The notes beneath the pieces are model-generated. The model did not search any database, was not told the origin of the DNA, and saw only the letters and a program-made list of their open reading frames with translations. From positions 119,095-183,094 of IMG/VR virus record IMGVR_UViG_3300045988_058553: a DNA stretch of 64,000 bases, one strand, 5' to 3'. Positions 2,836-47,914 of the stretch are shown here, piece after piece; the first letter of the stretch is position 1, and each line of letters opens with the position of its first letter. The translations under genes and the position numbers were made by a program. The stretch is from a virus.

Positions 2836-2914
2836 ACCAGTTCCTTCAGAGGCTAATTCAACAGATTCAAAAGTTTTTCTACTACCGTCCTTAAAGATGG
2901 CTGTAACACTTGTA

Positions 2915-3928
2915 TTAGTCTACTTTTTCATTCTTCTTAAGTTTCTTTATGTAATTAGTAATAAATTCTTGTGTACCTTTTCTTCCATACATATGGTAAT
3001 AATCACTTATATCCTTAGCTCCTGTGCTTCTGGGAATCATTGATACAATTAGTTCTGGATGCTCTTTCCTAATCTTATTAGTAAAACGTACTCCAGTCAA
3101 ATCATTATCATATAGCAACACAACGTATTTGAATCTCTGCTTTAATTCTTCTAAAATCTTATCAGAAACAAACTGAGTTTCAGAGTTGGGAGCTATAGCT
3201 GGTATTCCTAAAGAATATAAACACATTACATCTTTCATAGATTTAGTTATAACAACTAGTTTTCCACTCTTAGCTAATTGCTTATAGCCTTGAATAGTCT
3301 TGGTTGAAACATTTCCTATGAATCTAAACTCCTTTCGTTTTGGCATATAAATTCGCCATTGCTCGATGTTCTCTTTCTTTCCAAAATAGTAGCCATATAT
3401 AGGACTATGCTGGGCAGATTGTGCATATATGTTCCCATTCAAAAATACAGTACTACAACTGTATACTTTGAACTTATATAGGATGTCTTTAGTTATACCA
3501 AAACTTCCCCACCACTTCAACTCAGGTTCTGAAAAATCCTTAGCCTCTATCTGAATAAAAGTTTGTTTCTCTTCTTCAAACTTAGGCTGGATTTTCACTG
3601 CAACTTTCTTTACGGAAGAATCTTTCGTATATCCAAAGTCTTTAGCTATAATCCTTAAAGCAGTGTGGTAGTTACAATTATACTTTTCCATAACTACTCC
3701 TTCGAATGTGAGACATTTTCCAGAAGCAAAGTCTTTAAAATACAAGTTTCCAGATTTTCCTCTAAAGAAACTGCAAGTGACATGACTGTCACTACGCAAA
3801 GGAGACTTGAACAATCCTTTCTTAACTGGGATGCCCAGATAATAAGTCATGTAAGTCTCCTCATTGTTTTTAGATAGAAGAAATTCCTTAGTAATTTTTG
3901 GTTCAAAAGTATAATCAAACATGGTCAC
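2915..3928 (-). CDS. putative DNA primase / TOPRIM-domain protein
   Basis: 337-aa ORF. C-terminal half has a TOPRIM-like acidic motif (VVLLYDNDLTG) and sits in a replication module with helicases. Confidence 0.4.
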   Translation of the reverse strand: MTMFDYTFEPKITKEFLLSKNNEETYMTYYLGIPVKKGLFKSPLRSDSHVTCSFFRGKSGNLYFKDFASGKCLTFEGVVMEKYNCNYHTALRIIAKDFGYTKDSSVKKVAVKIQPKFEEEKQTFIQIEAKDFSEPELKWWGSFGITKDILYKFKVYSCSTVFLNGNIYAQSAQHSPIYGYYFGKKENIEQWRIYMPKRKEFRFIGNVSTKTIQGYKQLAKSGKLVVITKSMKDVMCLYSLGIPAIAPNSETQFVSDKILEELKQRFKYVVLLYDNDLTGVRFTNKIRKEHPELIVSMIPRSTGAKDISDYYHMYGRKGTQEFITNYIKKLKKNEKVD

Positions 3929-3962
3929 TAAGGAATTTATGAATTACTCTACTAACAAATCA

Positions 3963-4658
3963 TTAGAGTAAGTCAGTGATGTCCAAATCATCTGCTGGAG
4001 CTTGGTCTACTCCTGCTACATCTGCAATTGGATCTTCTGACTTCATTTCAGTAGGCTTAGCCTTCAGATATTTCTGACGTTCTCCTTCCTCATAGTCAGA
4101 GAAGAACAGCTTATCGCCAATATAGTTATCAGAAATGAACGACTCACCCTGTTTGTTAATACCAACAATACGCGGTATATCAGCAACTACCTTACCGTCA
4201 CGGTTTCTACCAATCAACTTCAACTTAGTCTCTGTTCCCTTCACCTTCTCAGTGATTGTAATCAAAGCCTTAGCTACATCGTCGAAGCTCTTAAACTTAG
4301 AGCTAGCTGCTTGCATCTTTTCGAATCCTGCAGGGTTAAGAACCTGCGCAGTCTGTTTAACTACAGCCATCAAAGTTTCGAAGTTGGAGGGCATCACTAC
4401 CTTTCCACCATTCTTACTATCAAATTCTCGTCTCTCATCATCACCAGCTTTCGGGAAGAATTGAGTTACTGAGAAGTAACCATCTTCGTTCTCAAAATTG
4501 ATAGACAAAACTTTATAGTGGGCTGTTGGGTCCTTCTTCCCATCAAATTCCTTGATTTCGCAACCCATGAATTTTACATCATGGATATTCCAAGGGGTTA
4601 AAGGACGACGTGTGTTTCTTACTGCTGAGTCTGCTGATATACCAAAATTAAATGCCAT
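3963..4658 (-). CDS. putative single-stranded DNA-binding protein
   Basis: 231-aa ORF ending in an acidic tail (DDLDITDLL) of the kind found on SSB C-termini. Adjacent to an ATPase and helicases. Confidence 0.35.
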   Translation of the reverse strand: MAFNFGISADSAVRNTRRPLTPWNIHDVKFMGCEIKEFDGKKDPTAHYKVLSINFENEDGYFSVTQFFPKAGDDERREFDSKNGGKVVMPSNFETLMAVVKQTAQVLNPAGFEKMQAASSKFKSFDDVAKALITITEKVKGTETKLKLIGRNRDGKVVADIPRIVGINKQGESFISDNYIGDKLFFSDYEEGERQKYLKAKPTEMKSEDPIADVAGVDQAPADDLDITDLL

Positions 4659-4660
4659 AA

Positions 4661-5236
4661 TTAATTCAAATTAAAATCAAATTTTTCTAAGTTTTTGTCA
4701 TCTTCGTCTATGTTTAAATTATCTAATGCTTCTATATCGAGTTCTTTTTCGATATCAATTATCTCTTCCGGCACAGGATTTGACTCCTGTACCTTGTCTC
4801 CTATCAGATAATAAATTCCTTTATCCTCTGTAGGTTCCAACTTAAAGACAGTACCGTAAGCAGAAAGCTTTTCGTTAGCAGCTCCTCTATAACTTACAGT
4901 ATTACTTTTAGTCAGCTTGTTTCCAGCCTTAGTACCGAAAGCAGCATCGGTTCCAATAATAGGAACTGCCTTCTTATCCTTTTTCTTATACTTGATGTCT
5001 ACACGACAATCTGCACAGACTTGTAACAAGTCTACTGCCCCTTGGGTCAAAATCAACTTGTTAGAATCAAGCGTAATAATAGGTTCAGGATTTTCATCTA
5101 CCTTAGCAGATGAAGATTTACTACTTGCAGCTTTCTTAGTAGCTACGGTGTCAACATGGATTTCTTCTTTACCAATATAGGTGATTTCACCCGTTTGCTC
5201 ATTCACATCATAGTGAAACAGTATGTCTAATTTCAT
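4661..5236 (-). CDS. hypothetical protein (acidic C-terminus)
   Basis: 191-aa ORF with an acidic C-terminal tail. Confidence 0.4.
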   Translation of the reverse strand: MKLDILFHYDVNEQTGEITYIGKEEIHVDTVATKKAASSKSSSAKVDENPEPIITLDSNKLILTQGAVDLLQVCADCRVDIKYKKKDKKAVPIIGTDAAFGTKAGNKLTKSNTVSYRGAANEKLSAYGTVFKLEPTEDKGIYYLIGDKVQESNPVPEEIIDIEKELDIEALDNLNIDEDDKNLEKFDFNLN

Positions 5237-5931
5237 TATTCCCCTTCGTTATAAGCGTCAATAACTTTAATAATCTCATCCAAATCATTATCAATTTCTA
5301 AGTCTTCAAACATTCCCAAAGAAGTCTTTGCTACACAGCTACCATCATTGTTAGTGATAAGCTTATACTCCATTCTACCGGAGTCTCCTTCGTTTACTTT
5401 AGTAAAGAAGATATATGTAAACAAACCTTCCAAGGTTACTTTTTCAGACAGCAACTTACCAACAGTCTTGATAACATACTTAGGATTAACGTTGTCTCCA
5501 ACATTTTCTGAGTGAGTCAAGAAGATCATTTTGCAATCCTCTCTCATCTTTTCTGAATATCTCAGAATTTCCATAGCGTGTTGAGCTAATTCACTAAACT
5601 TAGTATAACCAACTTCAGTTGCTCTATCAACGAACTCATAAGAGAGAACATATTGGAAGTCATCAATGATTACCTGCTTGATGTGTGGCATCATCTTATC
5701 AATAATTTGAAGAATTTTCAGTATTTGGTCCCACTTTGAACTTACATAGTAGTTACCACTCACGTTCTTTCCTTCGATTTTGATGGGAATATACTTCTTC
5801 TTCCATGCACGGAAGGGAAGGGGTTTACCCGTAGTACTTATAATAAAAGTAGTTTCGGGATTAAGATTTCTTAAACTTGTACTTTTTCCAGTACCTGATT
5901 CACCTACGATAGCAATTGTTTCAGCAGCCAT
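5236..5931 (-). CDS. P-loop ATPase (Sak4/RecA-like recombination ATPase candidate)
   Basis: Walker A GESGTGKST near the N-terminus and Walker B-like VIIDDF. Neighbours an SSB-like gene. Confidence 0.5.
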   Translation of the reverse strand: MAAETIAIVGESGTGKSTSLRNLNPETTFIISTTGKPLPFRAWKKKYIPIKIEGKNVSGNYYVSSKWDQILKILQIIDKMMPHIKQVIIDDFQYVLSYEFVDRATEVGYTKFSELAQHAMEILRYSEKMREDCKMIFLTHSENVGDNVNPKYVIKTVGKLLSEKVTLEGLFTYIFFTKVNEGDSGRMEYKLITNNDGSCVAKTSLGMFEDLEIDNDLDEIIKVIDAYNEGE

Positions 5932-7025
5932 TATTCTAATGCAAAATTAAAATTCGAATTTGAATTATCTAATTCTGTAATATCATCTAGCTCCTGTTCT
6001 ACAATAGAACTATTATCTTCTAATATATAGTTTGGACTTGTATATCTCTCATAATCATAAATTTCATCGGGCTTCGGCAGCTCGTAGAACATATTAATCC
6101 ATCCAAAGAAGTTTACTCCAACCTCAACATCGCAATCCCCATATCGGTTCTTAAGTACCATAATACTCCTATAATAAGAGCCTAGATACTCAATATTGTA
6201 GTGTTTATAAGTCTTCAATCCATCTCTGTGAGGATTATACAATGCAATCATGATATTACAATCTTGCACAGTATTACCTGAATCCTTAGCATCGTGAATA
6301 GTAAACGCACTTTTGCCTTGCTTAAACCTCTCAATATTTCCTTGCTCTCTATTAGCTTGCTGTATTACTACAGGACTAATAAAACACTTATCTCTAAGAA
6401 AAAGAAGATAGCTAGACAACAAATCAATATCAGGCTTTGTACCAACAAGACCAATATGGTCTACAACTACATTATAAATAAGATTAGGATTATTTGGAGT
6501 ATAGACGAGGCGGGTTTCACTTTCAGAAAAGGTTCCCATTTCCTCCAACCTAGTTTTCAAGATGGCATATACCTTCTTCGGAGTTACCTTCTTGTCATAG
6601 ATTTCTAACTTCTTACTAATCTTATCTATCCAAGGCATACATTGCTTAACTAAGTCATAATGCTCATCAGATAAAATATATTCTTTTTCTCTTGACAATA
6701 TCTTCTTAAAAGATAGTTGGATTCCATAGGTCTCAAATATATATATGGATAACAGCTTAATATACAAAGCTACTTCTCCCATTTCAAGACTGAAATACAA
6801 TACCTTAAAATCATCATCATCAAGATGTTCCATTAGTGGTCGATATACATAAGCATATAAGGCAAACGAAGTCTTACCTGCACCAGAGTTTGATAGAATT
6901 AAAGTATAGGTTTCCCTAGTAACTCCATCAATAATACTCTCTAGCTTAGGAAGTTTCATAGAAATACCATGATTTAGTCCCTGTCTACCTCTATCAATTT
7001 CATTGAGAAGTTTATCAGAAATCAT
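5931..7025 (-). CDS. DnaB-like replicative helicase
   Basis: Walker A SNSGAGKTS plus the characteristic DnaB H1a motif YFSLEMGE. Confidence 0.55.
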   Translation of the reverse strand: MISDKLLNEIDRGRQGLNHGISMKLPKLESIIDGVTRETYTLILSNSGAGKTSFALYAYVYRPLMEHLDDDDFKVLYFSLEMGEVALYIKLLSIYIFETYGIQLSFKKILSREKEYILSDEHYDLVKQCMPWIDKISKKLEIYDKKVTPKKVYAILKTRLEEMGTFSESETRLVYTPNNPNLIYNVVVDHIGLVGTKPDIDLLSSYLLFLRDKCFISPVVIQQANREQGNIERFKQGKSAFTIHDAKDSGNTVQDCNIMIALYNPHRDGLKTYKHYNIEYLGSYYRSIMVLKNRYGDCDVEVGVNFFGWINMFYELPKPDEIYDYERYTSPNYILEDNSSIVEQELDDITELDNSNSNFNFALE

Positions 7026-12623: not shown

Positions 12624-13433
12624 TTATTTACAAACGTCTATTACAGTTAAGTTCTCGTTGCTGGGACGATAATTAATATCCCTATGAGAATTAGATACAA
12701 TAACCTGGTCAAAATTATTACACATATTAATCAGACCTTTATTATTAACTGCGTGACATACGATTATGATAAACTTGCTATTTGGATATCTCTCTTTGAG
12801 AACCTTAAGCTCTCCTAGGAAAGTTCCTCCGGCATCACACAAGTCATCAATGAACACAAATGTAGAATAGTAGCAATTCTTAGACTCCTCTATTTCAAAG
12901 GACTCAATTCTTCCAGTCTCTAGATTTCTTTCCTTTTTGAAGACTAAATAACCATAGTGAGAATAGTTACTTCCATATCTGTCCTTCGCCCCATGGTCTG
13001 GGAACACGATATTACTTTGGGCTGGAATCCAAGAGTGGTGTCCAAATTCCCAAGGTAAACATCTGTCACCAAGAAGATGAAAAGTTCTACTAGAATGTGC
13101 CTCAAGAACATATATGTTTCTATAGCCTAAGCTATTTAACATATTACATACTACTTTCAAGGAGAATGGACGATTAAAACTCATTACTCTATCCATACGC
13201 ATAGACATTAAATAAGTAATGTGTAAATCCCATTCTACTTCTTGTCTATCTAAAATATCTCCTACTTGCATTAAGAGGAATAAATCCTCAGTATTAGATA
13301 TTCTACAAATGACATCAATAGATTCCTTTCTGTTTAATTCCTCAGTAAGGAAAAACTGAGGCTCTCCATCAGGAAATCTAGTAACATCGTACTTAATTTC
13401 ACTGATTTCCTTGTTGATTAAGTTTAATTTCAT
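12624..13433 (-). CDS. ribose-phosphate pyrophosphokinase (Prs)-family protein; candidate ADPR-PP synthetase (Adps-like)
   Basis: Prs flexible-loop-like RFPDGE. YLMSMRMDR resembles Prs YFGYARQDR. PRPP-binding PRTase motif FVFIDDLCDAGGT. Confidence 0.5.
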   Translation of the reverse strand: MKLNLINKEISEIKYDVTRFPDGEPQFFLTEELNRKESIDVICRISNTEDLFLLMQVGDILDRQEVEWDLHITYLMSMRMDRVMSFNRPFSLKVVCNMLNSLGYRNIYVLEAHSSRTFHLLGDRCLPWEFGHHSWIPAQSNIVFPDHGAKDRYGSNYSHYGYLVFKKERNLETGRIESFEIEESKNCYYSTFVFIDDLCDAGGTFLGELKVLKERYPNSKFIIIVCHAVNNKGLINMCNNFDQVIVSNSHRDINYRPSNENLTVIDVCK

Positions 13434-13854
13434 CTACTACATATTTTAAGATTTCATAACTTTCTTCCAGACCTGCCCTATCATCTAGGAGGATATTATA
13501 ATAGGGTTTCTCAGAATTAGGAAATACAGGACTTTCATTTGTATATAGCTCAAAGTCTTCATCCAGACCTAATAATTTAGCAGTTTTCATCTGTTTAATA
13601 CATAGCTCTTGAAGATTTGTTTCACAGGTAAACAATATCAAATGAAATCCCAATTTATAACACTTATTAAGTAAATTTATGACTTCACTATAATCTCCTC
13701 CATTATTATGGTAATCGAAAATAGTATTATCAAAATCGAAAGCGACTATTAGCTTTCCGTATTTATGATACTCTTCTAATAGTCGTTTCTTGCAAGCTTC
13801 TTTCCCAAAAGGATGATTAAAGTCCACGGTCAATTCTTTGTCTGATTTCTTCAA
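13399..13854 (-). CDS. HAD-like phosphatase
   Basis: FDFDNTIFDY (DxDxT). Lies between the Prs-like and NAMPT-like genes. Confidence 0.4.
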   Translation of the reverse strand: MKKSDKELTVDFNHPFGKEACKKRLLEEYHKYGKLIVAFDFDNTIFDYHNNGGDYSEVINLLNKCYKLGFHLILFTCETNLQELCIKQMKTAKLLGLDEDFELYTNESPVFPNSEKPYYNILLDDRAGLEESYEILKYVVDEIKLNQQGNQ

Positions 13855-15367
13855 GAGAATATTCTTTCTTCAAGATACCATCTTCAAAGACAGTCTCTAA
13901 GCATCCCTCTTTTTCCTCCTCGATTGAGACCTGGTCGGTAGCAGTATACTTCCCATCCAGACATTTATAGACAGCAATCAAACCTTTCAAAGAGTTCTTA
14001 GTACCATCATCAGTTTTAGGATGTTTGAAGATTTCTTTCAATTCGCCATTTACTACGCAAGCAGTAGCCTTAATAGCAAACCCAAGACTATCTCTACTTG
14101 CATACTGATAGGAATATGAACCTACTCCCAGAACGAGATTACAAGCCGCCATATGAGCGTTTTCTAATCTCAAGTAGATTTGCTTTTGACGTTCCAGAGT
14201 AATAGAATCTCCATAAAGCAGACCAACCTTAGTGCTAGGATAACGGTAATCCTTTGAAGTAGTATTCCATCCGAAGATTTTACCAAGCATATAATATGCC
14301 CCATAATATTGACCTTCGGACACTTCAACATACTCTGCATCGTCGTTAAACGGAGCATAGCAGCAATAATACTTACCTTCTTTCATTCTGGTATTGAAGT
14401 GAGGATTAGTTCTCAACCCGCAGATTATATCTACTGGGTCTCCACTATCAGGACGGATTACTACTCTACCATCACGAGCCATAATGTCTTTCTTCAGCTT
14501 GGGCAAGAAATTTTCAATTACATTCCAGAAATCCCAAGTATCAGATACAATAGAAACAAACCCAGAAGGATACAAATCATTAATTAGACGTTTGAAAGTG
14601 CCCAGCTCATCTTCCTCCCCTCCAGCACACATTACAGAGTGTTCTGTTGCTGGAACTGTAGCAGCAATCAATTCCTCGTCTGAATTAGCTCCATAATATT
14701 CTTCCAAAGCAGCAATAGCTGGAATAGTTTCACTTCCCACAAAAGAAGTCATATGCGCCATACCAGATATAATTGCGGCTTCCATTCCCGCCATACCTCG
14801 CATTGAGAAATCATGACAACAAAAACCAAGATTTACATCTGTTGGAAAACCAGTCTTACAAGCATGACGATGTAGCTCTTTCTTATAAAGCCTAGCTCTA
14901 GTAGCAGATGTGCACGGCATCCACAAGGTACAGCTGATAATAGTCTCTAAGTAGTTAGTTAACCAAAAGAACTCGGGTAGGGTATTTGTAATGGTCATCA
15001 TGGGAACCCGAATAGGGCACACAGAACCTTCAGGAAGAGCCTTTATGCGAATTGGTAGATACCCAAGGTCATATAAAGCTTCAATATGTCTGTACCCAAC
15101 GGATTCAATACCAACAAAGTTGTTTACTCTACGATAGAACATCTCCACAGCTTCCTTCTTTGGTAAATTAAAGAAGTTTTTCTCAAACTGTTTAATGAGA
15201 TATTCTTTGATTAGGTATTGAATACCAAATACTACTGAACCTTCGGTTGCTTCTGGGAAGTATTTATTACTTCTAGGAGTCCAGTTACTATAAACTTGTT
15301 CAGTACCTTCGGGATACATTCTGTGATGGCCCAATTTGTAACCATCTGTAGCATTAATTATTTCCAT
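13817..15367 (-). CDS. nadV: nicotinamide phosphoribosyltransferase family protein (NadV/NAMPT or Namat-like)
   Basis: 516 aa, N-terminal DGYKLGHH motif typical of the NAMPT family. Length and overall sequence fit NadV. Confidence 0.6.
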   Translation of the reverse strand: MEIINATDGYKLGHHRMYPEGTEQVYSNWTPRSNKYFPEATEGSVVFGIQYLIKEYLIKQFEKNFFNLPKKEAVEMFYRRVNNFVGIESVGYRHIEALYDLGYLPIRIKALPEGSVCPIRVPMMTITNTLPEFFWLTNYLETIISCTLWMPCTSATRARLYKKELHRHACKTGFPTDVNLGFCCHDFSMRGMAGMEAAIISGMAHMTSFVGSETIPAIAALEEYYGANSDEELIAATVPATEHSVMCAGGEEDELGTFKRLINDLYPSGFVSIVSDTWDFWNVIENFLPKLKKDIMARDGRVVIRPDSGDPVDIICGLRTNPHFNTRMKEGKYYCCYAPFNDDAEYVEVSEGQYYGAYYMLGKIFGWNTTSKDYRYPSTKVGLLYGDSITLERQKQIYLRLENAHMAACNLVLGVGSYSYQYASRDSLGFAIKATACVVNGELKEIFKHPKTDDGTKNSLKGLIAVYKCLDGKYTATDQVSIEEEKEGCLETVFEDGILKKEYSLEEIRQRIDRGL

Positions 15368-16455: not shown

Positions 16456-17472
16456 TCATTGTTCTGTTACGATTACGATTCTGTTAAATTCTCTATCTCC
16501 AAACTCAGTAGTGCTTCCGCAGCCTTTAACTATAAGCTTATCCTCTGGAGCGCCATAACTGATAAGGGCCTTCTTCATAGATTCTGCTCTAGCTACAGCT
16601 AAGTTGTCATTAAAATCTACTGGACCTTCTTCAGAAGCATATCCCTCAATCATATATGACTTACCACTATTTGAAATATAAGCTGCTAACTCCGATACTG
16701 CAACATTAGAAGTTGTAGAGATTTCAGAAGAGTTCTGTAAAAACTGAATTTTAGGTGTAAGAAGTTCTACCTTAGTAACTACTATAGTATCAGTCTTAAT
16801 TATTTCTACTGGTTTACGAGATTCCAATTCGCTATTCTTAGCCCTCAACTCGTTAATGGCAGCATTAAGACTTTCTACTTCAGCGTCACTATATAGTTTC
16901 ATCATAGGAAAGTTTCCTTTATTAGACTTAAATCGGTAAGTAGCTCCTACATAAACATTTACTTCATGATTTAGAGGAGTAGTCTTTGGAAGTAGCATAT
17001 ACTCTGGAGTAACATTTAGTGCCCAACTATCAGTAATATTAAAGTTGCATCTAATTGCACCTCTTGCAGATACATTATTATAAACATCACCATAAGTATG
17101 ATACCAACCAGCACCTATCAGTAATACAGGCTCAAATAAACGTCTAGAGCCTTCGTATCCACAAATAAGATTAGTTAGATTAGTAGTTACATTAGCTGTA
17201 AGGTTATGGGAATCGAAGAACGTTTTACTGCCTTGATTCATACCTGCCATCATATCTAACTCTAGTCCGAAGATAGGAGTAATTTCTTTACCCACCGCAA
17301 TATTTACTAATACATCATGAGGTTCAGCCCAACTTCTTGAGTTGTCCCAAATTGTAGTACCTACATTACCAGAAACATACCAGTTATCTTTCAAACTTCC
17401 AGTTTCAACAACTTGTGCGCTAGCAAACACGCACATTAAACACAAACAAATAATACTAAAAATTTTCTTCAT
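16456..17472 (-). CDS. OmpA-family outer-membrane protein (beta-barrel + OmpA_C)
   Basis: Bacteroidota-style signal peptide ending ASAQ. C-terminal OmpA-like peptidoglycan-binding region (YMIEGYASEEG...NLAVARAESMKKAL). Confidence 0.5.
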   Translation of the reverse strand: MKKIFSIICLCLMCVFASAQVVETGSLKDNWYVSGNVGTTIWDNSRSWAEPHDVLVNIAVGKEITPIFGLELDMMAGMNQGSKTFFDSHNLTANVTTNLTNLICGYEGSRRLFEPVLLIGAGWYHTYGDVYNNVSARGAIRCNFNITDSWALNVTPEYMLLPKTTPLNHEVNVYVGATYRFKSNKGNFPMMKLYSDAEVESLNAAINELRAKNSELESRKPVEIIKTDTIVVTKVELLTPKIQFLQNSSEISTTSNVAVSELAAYISNSGKSYMIEGYASEEGPVDFNDNLAVARAESMKKALISYGAPEDKLIVKGCGSTTEFGDREFNRIVIVTEQ

Positions 17473-32338: not shown

Positions 32339-32755
32339 TTATACTACTTTAAGATGGCAATAAATACTAAATTCTGGAATTGGAATCCAAGTTGCAATAC
32401 CATTGCTATCTACTGGTTTACCCTTGTTGATTGTACAAATAGTGATATGAGGTTTAGCATTTGCACAAGGCAGATATTGGTCTCCCAATTCTACTCCAAA
32501 AGCTATTGCTTTCTCAGAAATCCCTATTTTGTTTACAATTAATCGAAAATTACCATCTATACGATATTGTAGGTCATTAGCCATCTTTTCTTCATGTTGA
32601 TTTTTATGGAGAAGAGTGCAATGATCTAAATAAATAGTACTTCCTCTTTGGAACACCAGATTGCAAATGATGGGATTTCCAATGATAACTTGCATAAGTT
32701 TGTTTCTAGTTGGTTCATCTAAGAACAATCCAAAATACTGATAATTCATACTCAA
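32339..32755 (-). CDS. hypothetical protein
   Basis: 138-aa ORF. Confidence 0.4.
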   Translation of the reverse strand: MSMNYQYFGLFLDEPTRNKLMQVIIGNPIICNLVFQRGSTIYLDHCTLLHKNQHEEKMANDLQYRIDGNFRLIVNKIGISEKAIAFGVELGDQYLPCANAKPHITICTINKGKPVDSNGIATWIPIPEFSIYCHLKVV

Positions 32756-47767: not shown

Positions 47768-47914
47768 AGTCAAAATGGAAATTAATAAAATAAGCAAAGG
47801 GTAACGACTAGACCTTCCTGTGCCACAATACTTTGAGTTATTTCACAACAACTGCATAGTCTCAGGGCATACCCATTATGGTCCGACAATAATATGAATA
47901 CTGCAACTTAGTAG

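Follow-up and report, generated by a model that had tools for sequence, protein, structure and literature searches.

NAD+ depletion is among the commonest bacterial anti-phage strategies, and NARP1, the pair formed by Adps and Namat, is the commonest phage answer to it. The locus analysed here raises the question of whether a phage gene triplet encoding Prs-like, HAD-like and NAMPT-like proteins is a NARP1 operon and, if so, what the third protein may contribute to it. The window, i.e., the whole 64-kb stretch of DNA that was analysed, is part of a ~186-kb phage genome. Its source is a large uncultured gut phage, probably with a Bacteroidota host; a reading of the window as a crAss-like phage was rejected. 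Between positions 12624 and 15367, three minus-strand genes with overlapping reading frames encode a NAMPT-like, a 151-aa and a Prs-like protein, as the first-pass annotation had noted. The order is Namat-HAD-Adps, Adps lying one gene from Namat on the same strand:

13817..15367, minus strand: Namat gene, 516 aa (PF18127 and PF04095, phrog_448)
13399..13854, minus strand: HAD phosphatase gene, 142-151 aa depending on the start codon
13500..13740, minus strand: hypervariable block within the HAD gene, amino acids ~57-115, from a 60-nt identity profile
12624..13433, minus strand: Adps gene, 269 aa, Prs family

The candidate starts of the HAD gene are TTG at 13854, TTG at 13833 and GTG at 13827.

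The Prs-like and NAMPT-like proteins

The first-pass annotation had offered two pathways for the pair, NARP1 or NadV plus Prs. The NAMPT-like protein has the two-domain architecture of NAMPT-type enzymes, with PF18127 and PF04095 in Pfam and phrog_448, and its best match in the PDB is the Namat of Bacillus phage SPbetaL1 (9W5X/9W5W, 488 bits), mammalian NAMPT scoring 227 bits. The published Namat signature, GS-X-Phi-X-Phi-X-Phi-TRD with positions 3 and 7 aromatic (PMC12774641), is represented in the clamp helix of the window protein by GSYSYQYASRD, with a T to S change at position 9. At this site, the validated Namats of SPbetaL1, Gary and DyoEdafos have GSFTYQYNTRD, GSFTYQYVTRD and GSFTYQHNTRD, and the PRPP users have GGGLLQQLDRD (KVP40 NadV) and GSGGALLQKLTRD (mouse NAMPT). 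The window protein is 44-50% identical to the validated Namats and 32% to NadV, and in a small neighbour-joining tree without support values it falls inside the Namat clade, with NadV as the outgroup. Clustering with canonical NadV, which the first-pass annotation had named among the outcomes that would count against its reading, was not found: the protein groups with the three validated Namats, and not with KVP40 NadV or mammalian NAMPT.

The catalytic core (SPbetaL1 F189, R192, D215, R306, D308, G360-D361 and the His of ATEHS) is identical throughout except for D215, a nicotinamide-contacting residue that is replaced by Glu, a conservative change common to crAss-like members. The selectivity-clamp loop is longer than that of NadV, as in other Namats. 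In SPbetaL1 Namat the adenine-stacking residue is Arg40, and the clamp loop is described as variable; the window protein has a Lys aligned with Arg40, followed by Tyr-Phe. A 38-aa insertion is present after about residue 317. The NAMPT-like protein carries the Namat signature and groups with Namats, and the use of ADPR-PP to make NAD+ is predicted from its sequence.

The Prs-like protein contains RFPDGE, RMDR where Prs has RQDR, FKKERNLETG with the catalytic-loop Lys, and the PRPP-type loop FIDDLCDAGGT. The Lys of FKKERN aligns with those of E. coli Prs (DKRR) and of validated Adps (DKERD, LKIRD); it corresponds to K162 of SPbetaL1 and K197 of B. subtilis Prs (Osterman et al. 2024, bioRxiv 10.1101/2024.02.11.579819). 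With the TIGR01251 model the protein scored 60.2 bits for a cut-off of 113, compared with 82-100 bits for validated Adps and 423 for E. coli Prs. None of the NCBIfam Prs cut-offs was reached, all equivalog models being far under threshold. Its placement was based on pairwise scores and on these Prs models. By phmmer, comparison with validated Adps gave 48-50 bits, and comparison with E. coli Prs gave 28; scores within the Adps clade are low, those between Adps proteins being no higher than some between Adps and Prs. The reference genes for the Namat and Adps comparisons were taken from phage records. We found no published residue-level determinants separating Adps from Prs in the literature. 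Two candidate discriminators were set aside: the K-x-R-D/N-x-x-T-G loop, also present in archaeal class III Prs, and PHROG membership, as phrog_619 also takes in E. coli Prs. Because its score, like those of validated Adps, falls short of the Prs cut-off, and because a gene with the Namat signature lies nearby, we assign it to Adps as a probable member, apparently diverged from Prs like the validated enzymes and with a predicted activity on ADPR. Given the Namat clamp signature, the grouping with three validated Namats and the Adps-like scores against Prs models, the pair is, of the two pathways offered, very probably NARP1 (Adps and Namat) and not Prs and NadV.

The HAD-like protein and its slot in the operon

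The protein encoded by the middle gene matched no Pfam family. Its catalytic set is intact (D40-x-D42-x-T44, T76, K116, D124-D125), and all four HAD motifs are conserved in the alignment. The fold is Rossmannoid, and the residues typical of the superfamily are in place: DxDxT in motif I, T/S in motif II, K in motif III and DD in motif IV. The structure model is confident and its fold matches are HAD phosphatases; as modelled, the protein is a capless (C0-type) HAD-superfamily phosphatase. Its nearest structural neighbour is BT_0820 (PDB 2obb), a minimal and uncharacterised HAD protein from Bacteroides thetaiotaomicron, which is only 20% identical to it and does not have the N-terminal extension (H14-P15...R24) that is conserved in the phage family; next come 5'(3')-deoxyribonucleotidases and the T4 PNK 3'-phosphatase. 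AfhF (PDB 9iqw) was considered as a precedent for anomeric dephosphorylation and discarded, as it removes a C5 phosphate instead. Members of the family are currently annotated as 'phosphoheptose isomerase' or 'hypothetical'.

We then looked at the association of the HAD gene with NARP1. HAD, Adps and Namat lie on one strand in 74 of 80 IMG/VR viral loci and in 44 of 67 loci from cellular genomes, and this linkage occurs in five gene orders, in Bacteroidota, Bacillus, Vibrio and other lineages. HAD is found without both NARP1 genes nearby in 18 of the 67 cellular-genome loci, in a 735-kb phage and in some Lak loci; the neighbours in the HAD-only loci are unrelated to NAD and give no functional hint. 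The most precise comparison is provided by two collinear Vibrio phages, Gary and VPT02, whose Adps and Namat are 82% and 87% identical: at exactly the same position between these two genes, Gary encodes the validated Macro-domain enzyme Adpp, and VPT02 encodes the HAD protein. A profile HMM of 11 Adpp sequences (positive control, E 1e-60) detected no Adpp, either in the window or across the HAD loci, tblastn with Gary Adpp gave no match, and the Macro Pfam domain is absent from the 25 of 28 families listed over 80 ORFs of the window. HAD and Macro phosphatases did not co-occur in the loci examined. The suggestion of the first-pass annotation that the HAD-like protein may add a step is borne out to this extent: a phosphatase-extended NARP1 (NARP1-AP) exists, and HAD fills the slot of its Macro enzyme.

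Other candidate members of the module were rejected: DUF5662 and the small downstream ORFs are conserved only in the lineage of the window, and a 2H phosphodiesterase-like ORF (32339..32755) is found mostly in phages without the HAD/NARP1 module. A promoter and terminator scan gave counts no better than shuffled sequences, with a consensus ill-suited to Bacteroidota.

The proposed pathway and competing substrates

The following pathway is proposed. After NAD+ cleavage by a host defence, and by homology to the validated enzymes for both steps, Adps would pyrophosphorylate the free 1''-OH of ADP-ribose with ATP to yield ADPR-PP, and Namat would let nicotinamide displace the pyrophosphate of ADPR-PP to form NAD+. 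RES-type defences (aRES) instead split NAD+ by phosphorolysis into ADPR-1''-phosphate, which Adps cannot use. HAD, judging from its gene context, would hydrolyse this phosphomonoester to ADPR, which would enter NARP1. It is likely that HAD feeds ADPR into NARP1 by dephosphorylating some phospho-ADPR species, and we favour, with somewhat less assurance, the reading of the triplet as a NARP1 operon extended by a non-homologous HAD phosphatase, the HAD-type counterpart of NARP1-AP. That the substrate is specifically ADPR-1''-phosphate is an even bet, based on association by gene context. Other activities can also occupy the place between Adps and Namat: because RyDEP, which fills it in DyoEdafos, is a cADPR glycosidase, the identity of the slot supports the supply of ADPR rather than one given substrate.

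The host range bears on this point. RES is the one chemistry, among those that the literature lists for NAD+ depletion, whose product is ADPR bearing a phosphomonoester. aRES has been described as the bacterial step by which NARP1 is overcome; its frequency is highest in two phyla, Bacillota (10.4%) and Bacteroidota (4.7%), and its listed carriers include B. thetaiotaomicron, Prevotella, B. cereus and Tenacibaculum. The HAD carriers infect these two phyla, in which aRES is commonest; the table of Macro-type Adpp includes no Bacillus, Bacteroides, Prevotella or Tenacibaculum phage.

Alternatively, HAD may act within NARP1 on another phospho-ADPR, either 2'-phospho-ADPR, from NADases cleaving NADP+, or ADPR-1''/2''-phosphate, from the ADPR-1'',2''-cyclic phosphate produced by spontaneous ADPR-PP decay; its role would then be scavenging or repair, and not anti-aRES. 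This reading draws on the same evidence from linkage and slot, RyDEP shows that accessories in the slot supply ADPR from varied precursors, and breakdown of ADPR-PP to ADPR-cyclic-phosphate has been observed (Osterman et al. 2024, bioRxiv 10.1101/2024.02.11.579819). We nevertheless consider it unlikely: the two-gene NARP1 is effective against canonical NADases, hence repair is not required; the in-situ swap with an ADPR-1''-phosphate enzyme and the match between host range and aRES point to ADPR-1''-phosphate; and the 2H phosphodiesterase-like ORF, a potential opener of the cyclic phosphate, is unlinked to NARP1 in other phages.

The HAD gene itself is variable in part. Identity profiles (60 nt) of the window against three loci (L017, L013 and L006), together with amino-acid identity classes and an alignment, delineated a block at 13500..13740 whose DNA is ~50% identical to that of phages matching the window at 98-100% over the rest of the operon. 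This hypervariable block is cassette-like with sharp edges, and lies between motifs I and III, the site of cap inserts in HAD proteins. In a further reading, HAD could be, not a simple analog of Adpp, but a processor of a phosphorylated NAD+ breakdown product or immune signal from an undescribed defence chemistry of Bacteroidota and Bacillota. The block would then reflect an ongoing arms race, with a host factor recognising or inhibiting the enzyme, or a shifting substrate specificity. We regard this as rather improbable.

HAD could also be a nucleotidase with no ADPR role, which destroys an alarm nucleotide such as m6dAMP, the trigger of Metis, a defence that NARP1 cannot counter, or which reshapes (deoxy)nucleotide pools, and whose only tie to the pair is a shared anti-defence islet. 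The 5'(3')-deoxyribonucleotidase and T4 PNK 3'-phosphatase neighbours fit a nucleotide substrate equally well. However, the HAD reading frame overlaps those of both Adps and Namat, the linkage persists in distant lineages through five gene orders, the exact exchange with Adpp between neighbours 82-87% identical would hardly be expected unless both had a role in one pathway, and MisB is a PF13419 protein whereas the window HAD matches no Pfam model; this reading is held to be quite improbable. Finally, canonical salvage of the kind seen in NARP2-type or KVP40-type phages, with PRPP supplied by the Prs-like protein and nicotinamide turned into NMN by NadV, agrees with the generic annotations of the proteins as Prs and NAMPT and with the PRPP-dependent NMN synthesis that Namat keeps to some extent in vitro (PMC12774641), but is highly implausible given a Namat-specific clamp in place of the NadV/NAMPT sequence, a NAMPT-like protein much closer to validated Namat, a Prs-like protein under all Prs cut-offs, and no NMN adenylyltransferase in the 25 of 28 Pfam families listed over 80 ORFs of the window (64 kb of the ~186-kb genome), so that the phage could not complete NMN to NAD+.

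If HAD is an ADPR-1''-phosphate phosphatase, the anti-aRES counter-move would have evolved at least two times from unrelated folds, and the HAD version would be that of human-gut Bacteroidota phages (crAss-like phages, Lak megaphages and this 186-kb lineage) and of Bacillus cereus group phages. The finding gives a directly testable function to a family named 'phosphoheptose isomerase' or 'hypothetical', and extends anti-defence annotation to ecologically dominant gut phages; the sharply bounded variable cassette may mark a further layer of conflict.

Comparison with known systems

NARP3 (PnuC and NadR) was checked and is unrelated. NARP2 (Nampt and Nmnat) and the NadV and NatV salvage of KVP40 similarly rebuild NAD+ during infection with a NAMPT-family enzyme; NARP2 differs in using PRPP and in needing an NMN adenylyltransferase, and NadV in having no adenine clamp, none of which was found in the 64 kb of the window. 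NARP1 is known from Bacillus phage SPbetaL1, Escherichia phage Bas63 and others (Osterman et al. 2024, bioRxiv 10.1101/2024.02.11.579819). With these phages the window has in common an operon that pairs the two enzyme families, a conserved Namat with regard to its catalytic core and its aromatic clamp helix, and an Adps that appears to have diverged from Prs likewise. It differs from them by an extra gene between the pair and by the order Namat-X-Adps instead of Adps-Namat, and from SPbetaL1 by the Asp215 to Glu change, the Lys at the Arg40 position and the 38-aa insertion of its Namat.

Two extended forms of NARP1 are closer in architecture. In Mycobacterium phage DyoEdafos (bioRxiv 10.64898/2026.05.28.727677), an accessory gene also lies between Adps and Namat, and its product, RyDEP, supplies linear ADPR; however, RyDEP acts on 2'/3'cADPR Thoeris signals as a RyR-domain glycosidase and is not a phosphatase, and no RyDEP homolog was found in the window. 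NARP1-AP (Adps-Adpp-Namat) of Vibrio phage Gary, described in January 2026, has as its Adpp a validated Macro-domain ADPR-1''-phosphate phosphatase (bioRxiv 10.64898/2026.01.28.702374). Both operons consist of three genes, with one for a small phosphatase added to the NARP1 pair; however, Adpp is a Poa1p-like Macro-domain protein to which the window HAD has no relationship in sequence or fold, and the ADPR-1''-phosphate, anti-aRES role of HAD is a predicted one. A search of the accessible literature returned no description of a HAD-type NARP1 phosphatase. The NARP1 pair and the Macro-type NARP1-AP are known, and what is new is the HAD-type phosphatase in the accessory slot.

The Adps-Namat pair

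The first-pass annotation had claimed a gene triplet at 12624-15367. Three overlapping open reading frames are present at exactly these coordinates, all on the minus strand, and every motif quoted for them was found.

Genes of the triplet
13817-15367, minus strand: NAMPT-like protein (Namat, nicotinamide ADPR-transferase), 516 aa
13399-13854, minus strand: middle protein (HAD), 151 aa
12624-13433, minus strand: Prs-like protein (Adps, ADPR-pyrophosphate synthetase), 269 aa

The HAD stop codon (13399-13401) lies 35 nt within Adps, the ATG of which is at 13433, and the candidate HAD start codons (TTG 13854, TTG 13833 and GTG 13827) overlap the 3' end of Namat (stop codon 13817-13819); HAD homologs start at the equivalent of GTG 13827. 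The three reading frames thus overlap, an anatomy that fits one translationally coupled unit. As the flanking genes are kept only inside the window's own lineage, the module comprises exactly three genes. The ORF at 16456-17472 (minus strand), ~1 kb upstream of the triplet, has a product of 338 aa in which a signal-like N-terminus is joined to an outer-membrane beta-barrel domain and an OmpA domain (PF13505, PF00691; ORF assignment from sequence features). A DUF1810 match (PF08837, E 1.8e-42) was also obtained among the window's ORFs, in an unplaced ORF that does not flank the operon.

The NAMPT-like protein matches PF04095, PF18127 and phrog_448 (E 1e-182), well beyond chance. Its best matches among solved structures are 9W5X and 9W5W (488 bits, versus ~227 for mammalian NAMPT), both of which are the SPbetaL1 Namat (PMC12774641). 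We compared it with the validated Namats of SPbetaL1, Vibrio phage Gary and Mycobacterium phage DyoEdafos, and with the PRPP-using NadV of KVP40.

Clamp sequences of Namat and NAMPT-type proteins
Window protein: GSYSYQYASRD
SPbetaL1 Namat (validated): GSFTYQYNTRD
Gary Namat (validated): GSFTYQYVTRD
DyoEdafos Namat (validated): GSFTYQHNTRD
KVP40 NadV: GGGLLQQLDRD
Mouse NAMPT: GSGGALLQKLTRD

The window protein keeps the Namat catalytic core and is placed within the Namat clade; it shares 44-50% identity with the validated Namats and 32% with NadV. It differs from the SPbetaL1 protein by a Glu in place of the nicotinamide-contacting Asp215, a substitution common to all crAss-like Namats, and by a Lys at the position of Arg40 in the variable clamp loop. 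After residue ~317, where other Namats carry variable insertions, the window protein has an insertion of 38 aa that is rich in Tyr and Cys.

The Prs-like protein matches phrog_619 (E 4e-52). It scores 60.2 bits against TIGR01251 (cut-off 113), far under every curated Prs cut-off, whereas E. coli Prs reaches 422.7 bits. The validated Adps of Gary (99.9 bits) and DyoEdafos (81.7 bits) also fall below 113, as do the homologs of Bacillus phage Belinda (80.6 bits) and crAss-like cr126_1 (54.9 bits). With phmmer, the window protein reached 48-50 bits with validated Adps, against 28 bits with E. coli Prs. In place of the RQDR of Prs, all compared Adps have RMDR or RADR; their regulatory loop is also shortened. 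A Namat is the neighbour of 97% of Adps-clade genes (bioRxiv 10.1101/2024.02.11.579819), and such a neighbour is present in the window. From these sequence comparisons, and given a very diverse clade, the Adps identity of the Prs-like protein is moderately supported.

The first-pass annotation had left a choice between Adps plus Namat and NadV plus Prs; the clamp, the clade position and the sub-cut-off Prs score favour the former. NARP2, the NadV-type route, requires an NMN adenylyltransferase, and none was found among 25 of the 28 Pfam families for the window's ORFs. We are confident that the window pair is NARP1, as defined by Osterman et al. (bioRxiv 10.1101/2024.02.11.579819; Namat structure, PMC12774641).

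The HAD family and its linkage to NARP1

The middle protein matched no Pfam or NCBIfam model; its sole family match is phrog_1238, labelled 'phosphoheptose isomerase'. In a collection of 5.8 billion proteins we found 596 relatives, and the best 120 of these bear no precomputed Pfam domain save for two longer proteins (AAA). Alignment of 31 relatives shows little or no variation in the four HAD phosphatase motifs (D40-x-D42-x-T44, the motif II T/S, K116 and D124-D125), and an N-terminal H14-P15...R24 and the flap residues D47, H49, G52-G53 and Y55 are also conserved. The catalytic set, together with R24, D47, N106, N120 and R126, is retained in distant Bacillus, Vibrio, Tenacibaculum and megaphage members, PTm1 being the one exception, with a Glu at the nucleophile position. 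As this set is kept even in distant relatives, the middle protein is an active-looking, predicted capless HAD phosphatase.

In annotated phages, the family was found in 85 records and in several gene orders: Namat-HAD-Adps in crAss-like cr126_1, cr111_1 and DAC15, Adps-Namat-HAD in Belinda and gut phage Phass-1, and Adps-HAD-Namat in Vibrio phage VPT02. In Phass-1 (2881-6396), the gene immediately upstream of the triplet is annotated as a nicotinamidase, which is puzzling beside a nicotinamide-consuming pathway. Same-strand Namat-like and Adps-like genes accompany HAD in 74 of the 80 IMG/VR loci found by HAD alignment. Bacterial genomes and MAGs contributed 67 loci, of which 44 have all three genes (in four orders), 5 have one partner and 18 have HAD only, with neighbours that are not NAD-related. 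The Namat-like gene of these loci scores far higher with SPbetaL1 Namat than with NadV except in one Mucilaginibacter locus (L127), which resembles a canonical NadV and Prs pair. In Lak megaphages (Prevotella phage Lak-B5, 20001-21295), HAD is directly followed by Adps, and the 20 kb to each side contain no Namat; in a 735-kb phage (LR756501.1) HAD has no NARP1 partner within 15 kb on either side. In huge phages, the pathway may be split across the genome, or HAD may have another role.

Phage lineage and variation

The window comes from a lineage of uncultured gut phages of ~186 kb, related contigs clustering at 185-193 kb. A 186,052-bp contig binned as a 'Bacteroides sp.' MAG (DXLM01000001.1) carries near-identical Namat, HAD (99%) and Adps. 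A crAss-like origin was ruled out, the helicase having matches in uncultured gut phages and more distant ones in Flavobacterium phages, and in no others. The window Namat is 66-68% identical to crAss-like Namats. That this lineage and crAss-like phages share NARP1 with HAD implies horizontal transfer of the module between them.

Within HAD, a sharply bounded, cassette-like hypervariable block of ~240 nt (13500-13740) shows ~50% identity to phages that are otherwise 98-100% identical across Namat, Adps and downstream DNA. The block, of which several alleles exist, encodes aa 57-115, where HAD cap inserts sit. Recombination of diverged alleles is one candidate cause, and diversifying selection acting on the surface or the specificity region of the enzyme is another.

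The window carries 21 tRNA genes (array at 21.8-51.3 kb).

Other features of the window
47914-47984 (minus strand) and 51273-51345 (plus strand): two suppressor-type tRNAs, anticodons TTA and CTA
32339-32755, minus strand: 2H phosphodiesterase-like ORF, 138 aa, two HxT/S motifs, PF08302 (E 2e-7)

No ORF of at least 60 aa under table 11 occurs in the plus-strand region from 50 to 64 kb, nor in several further stretches. Together with the suppressor-type tRNAs, these ORF-poor stretches suggest that stop codons are recoded in late genes. The HAD homologs of two loci (L064 and L077) are each interrupted by one in-frame stop, which would fit recoding in related phages. PF08302 is the fungal tRNA-ligase 2H cyclic-phosphodiesterase domain. 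As an opener of ADPR cyclic phosphate, this ORF was rejected: it is unlinked, and occurs mostly in Lak phages and in Bacteroides phages without the HAD/NARP1 module.

Candidate role of HAD and comparison with known systems

The RES-domain defence aRES cleaves NAD+ to nicotinamide and ADPR-1''-phosphate (ADPR-1''P), which Adps cannot use; 15% of NARP1 phages carry within the operon a Macro-domain phosphatase, Adpp, that converts ADPR-1''P to ADPR, and this NARP1-AP pathway has been validated for Gary (10.64898/2026.01.28.702374). In the role of Adpp, the HAD phosphatase would feed ADPR into NARP1. In-situ replacement, mutual exclusion, complementary host range and chemistry argue for such a role. 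Gary and VPT02, two phages of one subfamily, have collinear genes throughout this region (flanking genes 38-95%, Adps 82% and Namat 87% identical); between Adps and Namat, Gary encodes the Macro Adpp and VPT02 encodes HAD, an unrelated protein. No Adpp was detected in the window or in HAD-carrying loci by tblastn with Gary Adpp or by a profile HMM of 11 diverse Adpp (positive control recovered at E 1e-60), and no Macro domain occurs among 25 of the 28 Pfam families for the window's ORFs.

The hosts of HAD carriers are mainly Bacillus and Bacteroidota. The Macro-Adpp table includes no phages of Bacillus, Bacteroides, Prevotella or Tenacibaculum, and the hosts in it include Pseudomonas, Vibrio, Acinetobacter and Pseudoalteromonas; aRES reaches its highest frequencies in Bacillota (10.4%) and Bacteroidota (4.7%), with entries for genomes of B. 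thetaiotaomicron, Prevotella, B. cereus and Tenacibaculum (10.64898/2026.01.28.702374). Among the NAD+-depleting immune chemistries listed to date, RES alone leaves a phosphomonoester on ADPR (10.64898/2026.01.28.702374), and E. coli YihX is a precedent for anomeric sugar-1-phosphate hydrolysis by HAD enzymes (PMC4251788).

However, in DyoEdafos NARP1 the same slot is occupied by RyDEP, a cADPR glycosidase; the slot therefore favours the supply of ADPR rather than one particular substrate. Some HAD family members are, moreover, located outside NARP1. Overall, HAD is probably a phosphatase feeding ADPR into NARP1, and the chances that its substrate would be ADPR-1''P specifically appear even.

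A HAD accessory is undescribed in the NARP1, NARP1-AP, RyDEP, NARP3, Metis and NIR literature, as far as an incomplete search covered it, and in a 2022 survey of viral NAD+/ADPr systems; the Macro gene is called only 'one of the most common' additional genes (10.64898/2026.01.28.702374). The Adps and Namat core is a further member of known NARP1, and the whole operon is a putative variant of NARP1-AP with a non-orthologous phosphatase.
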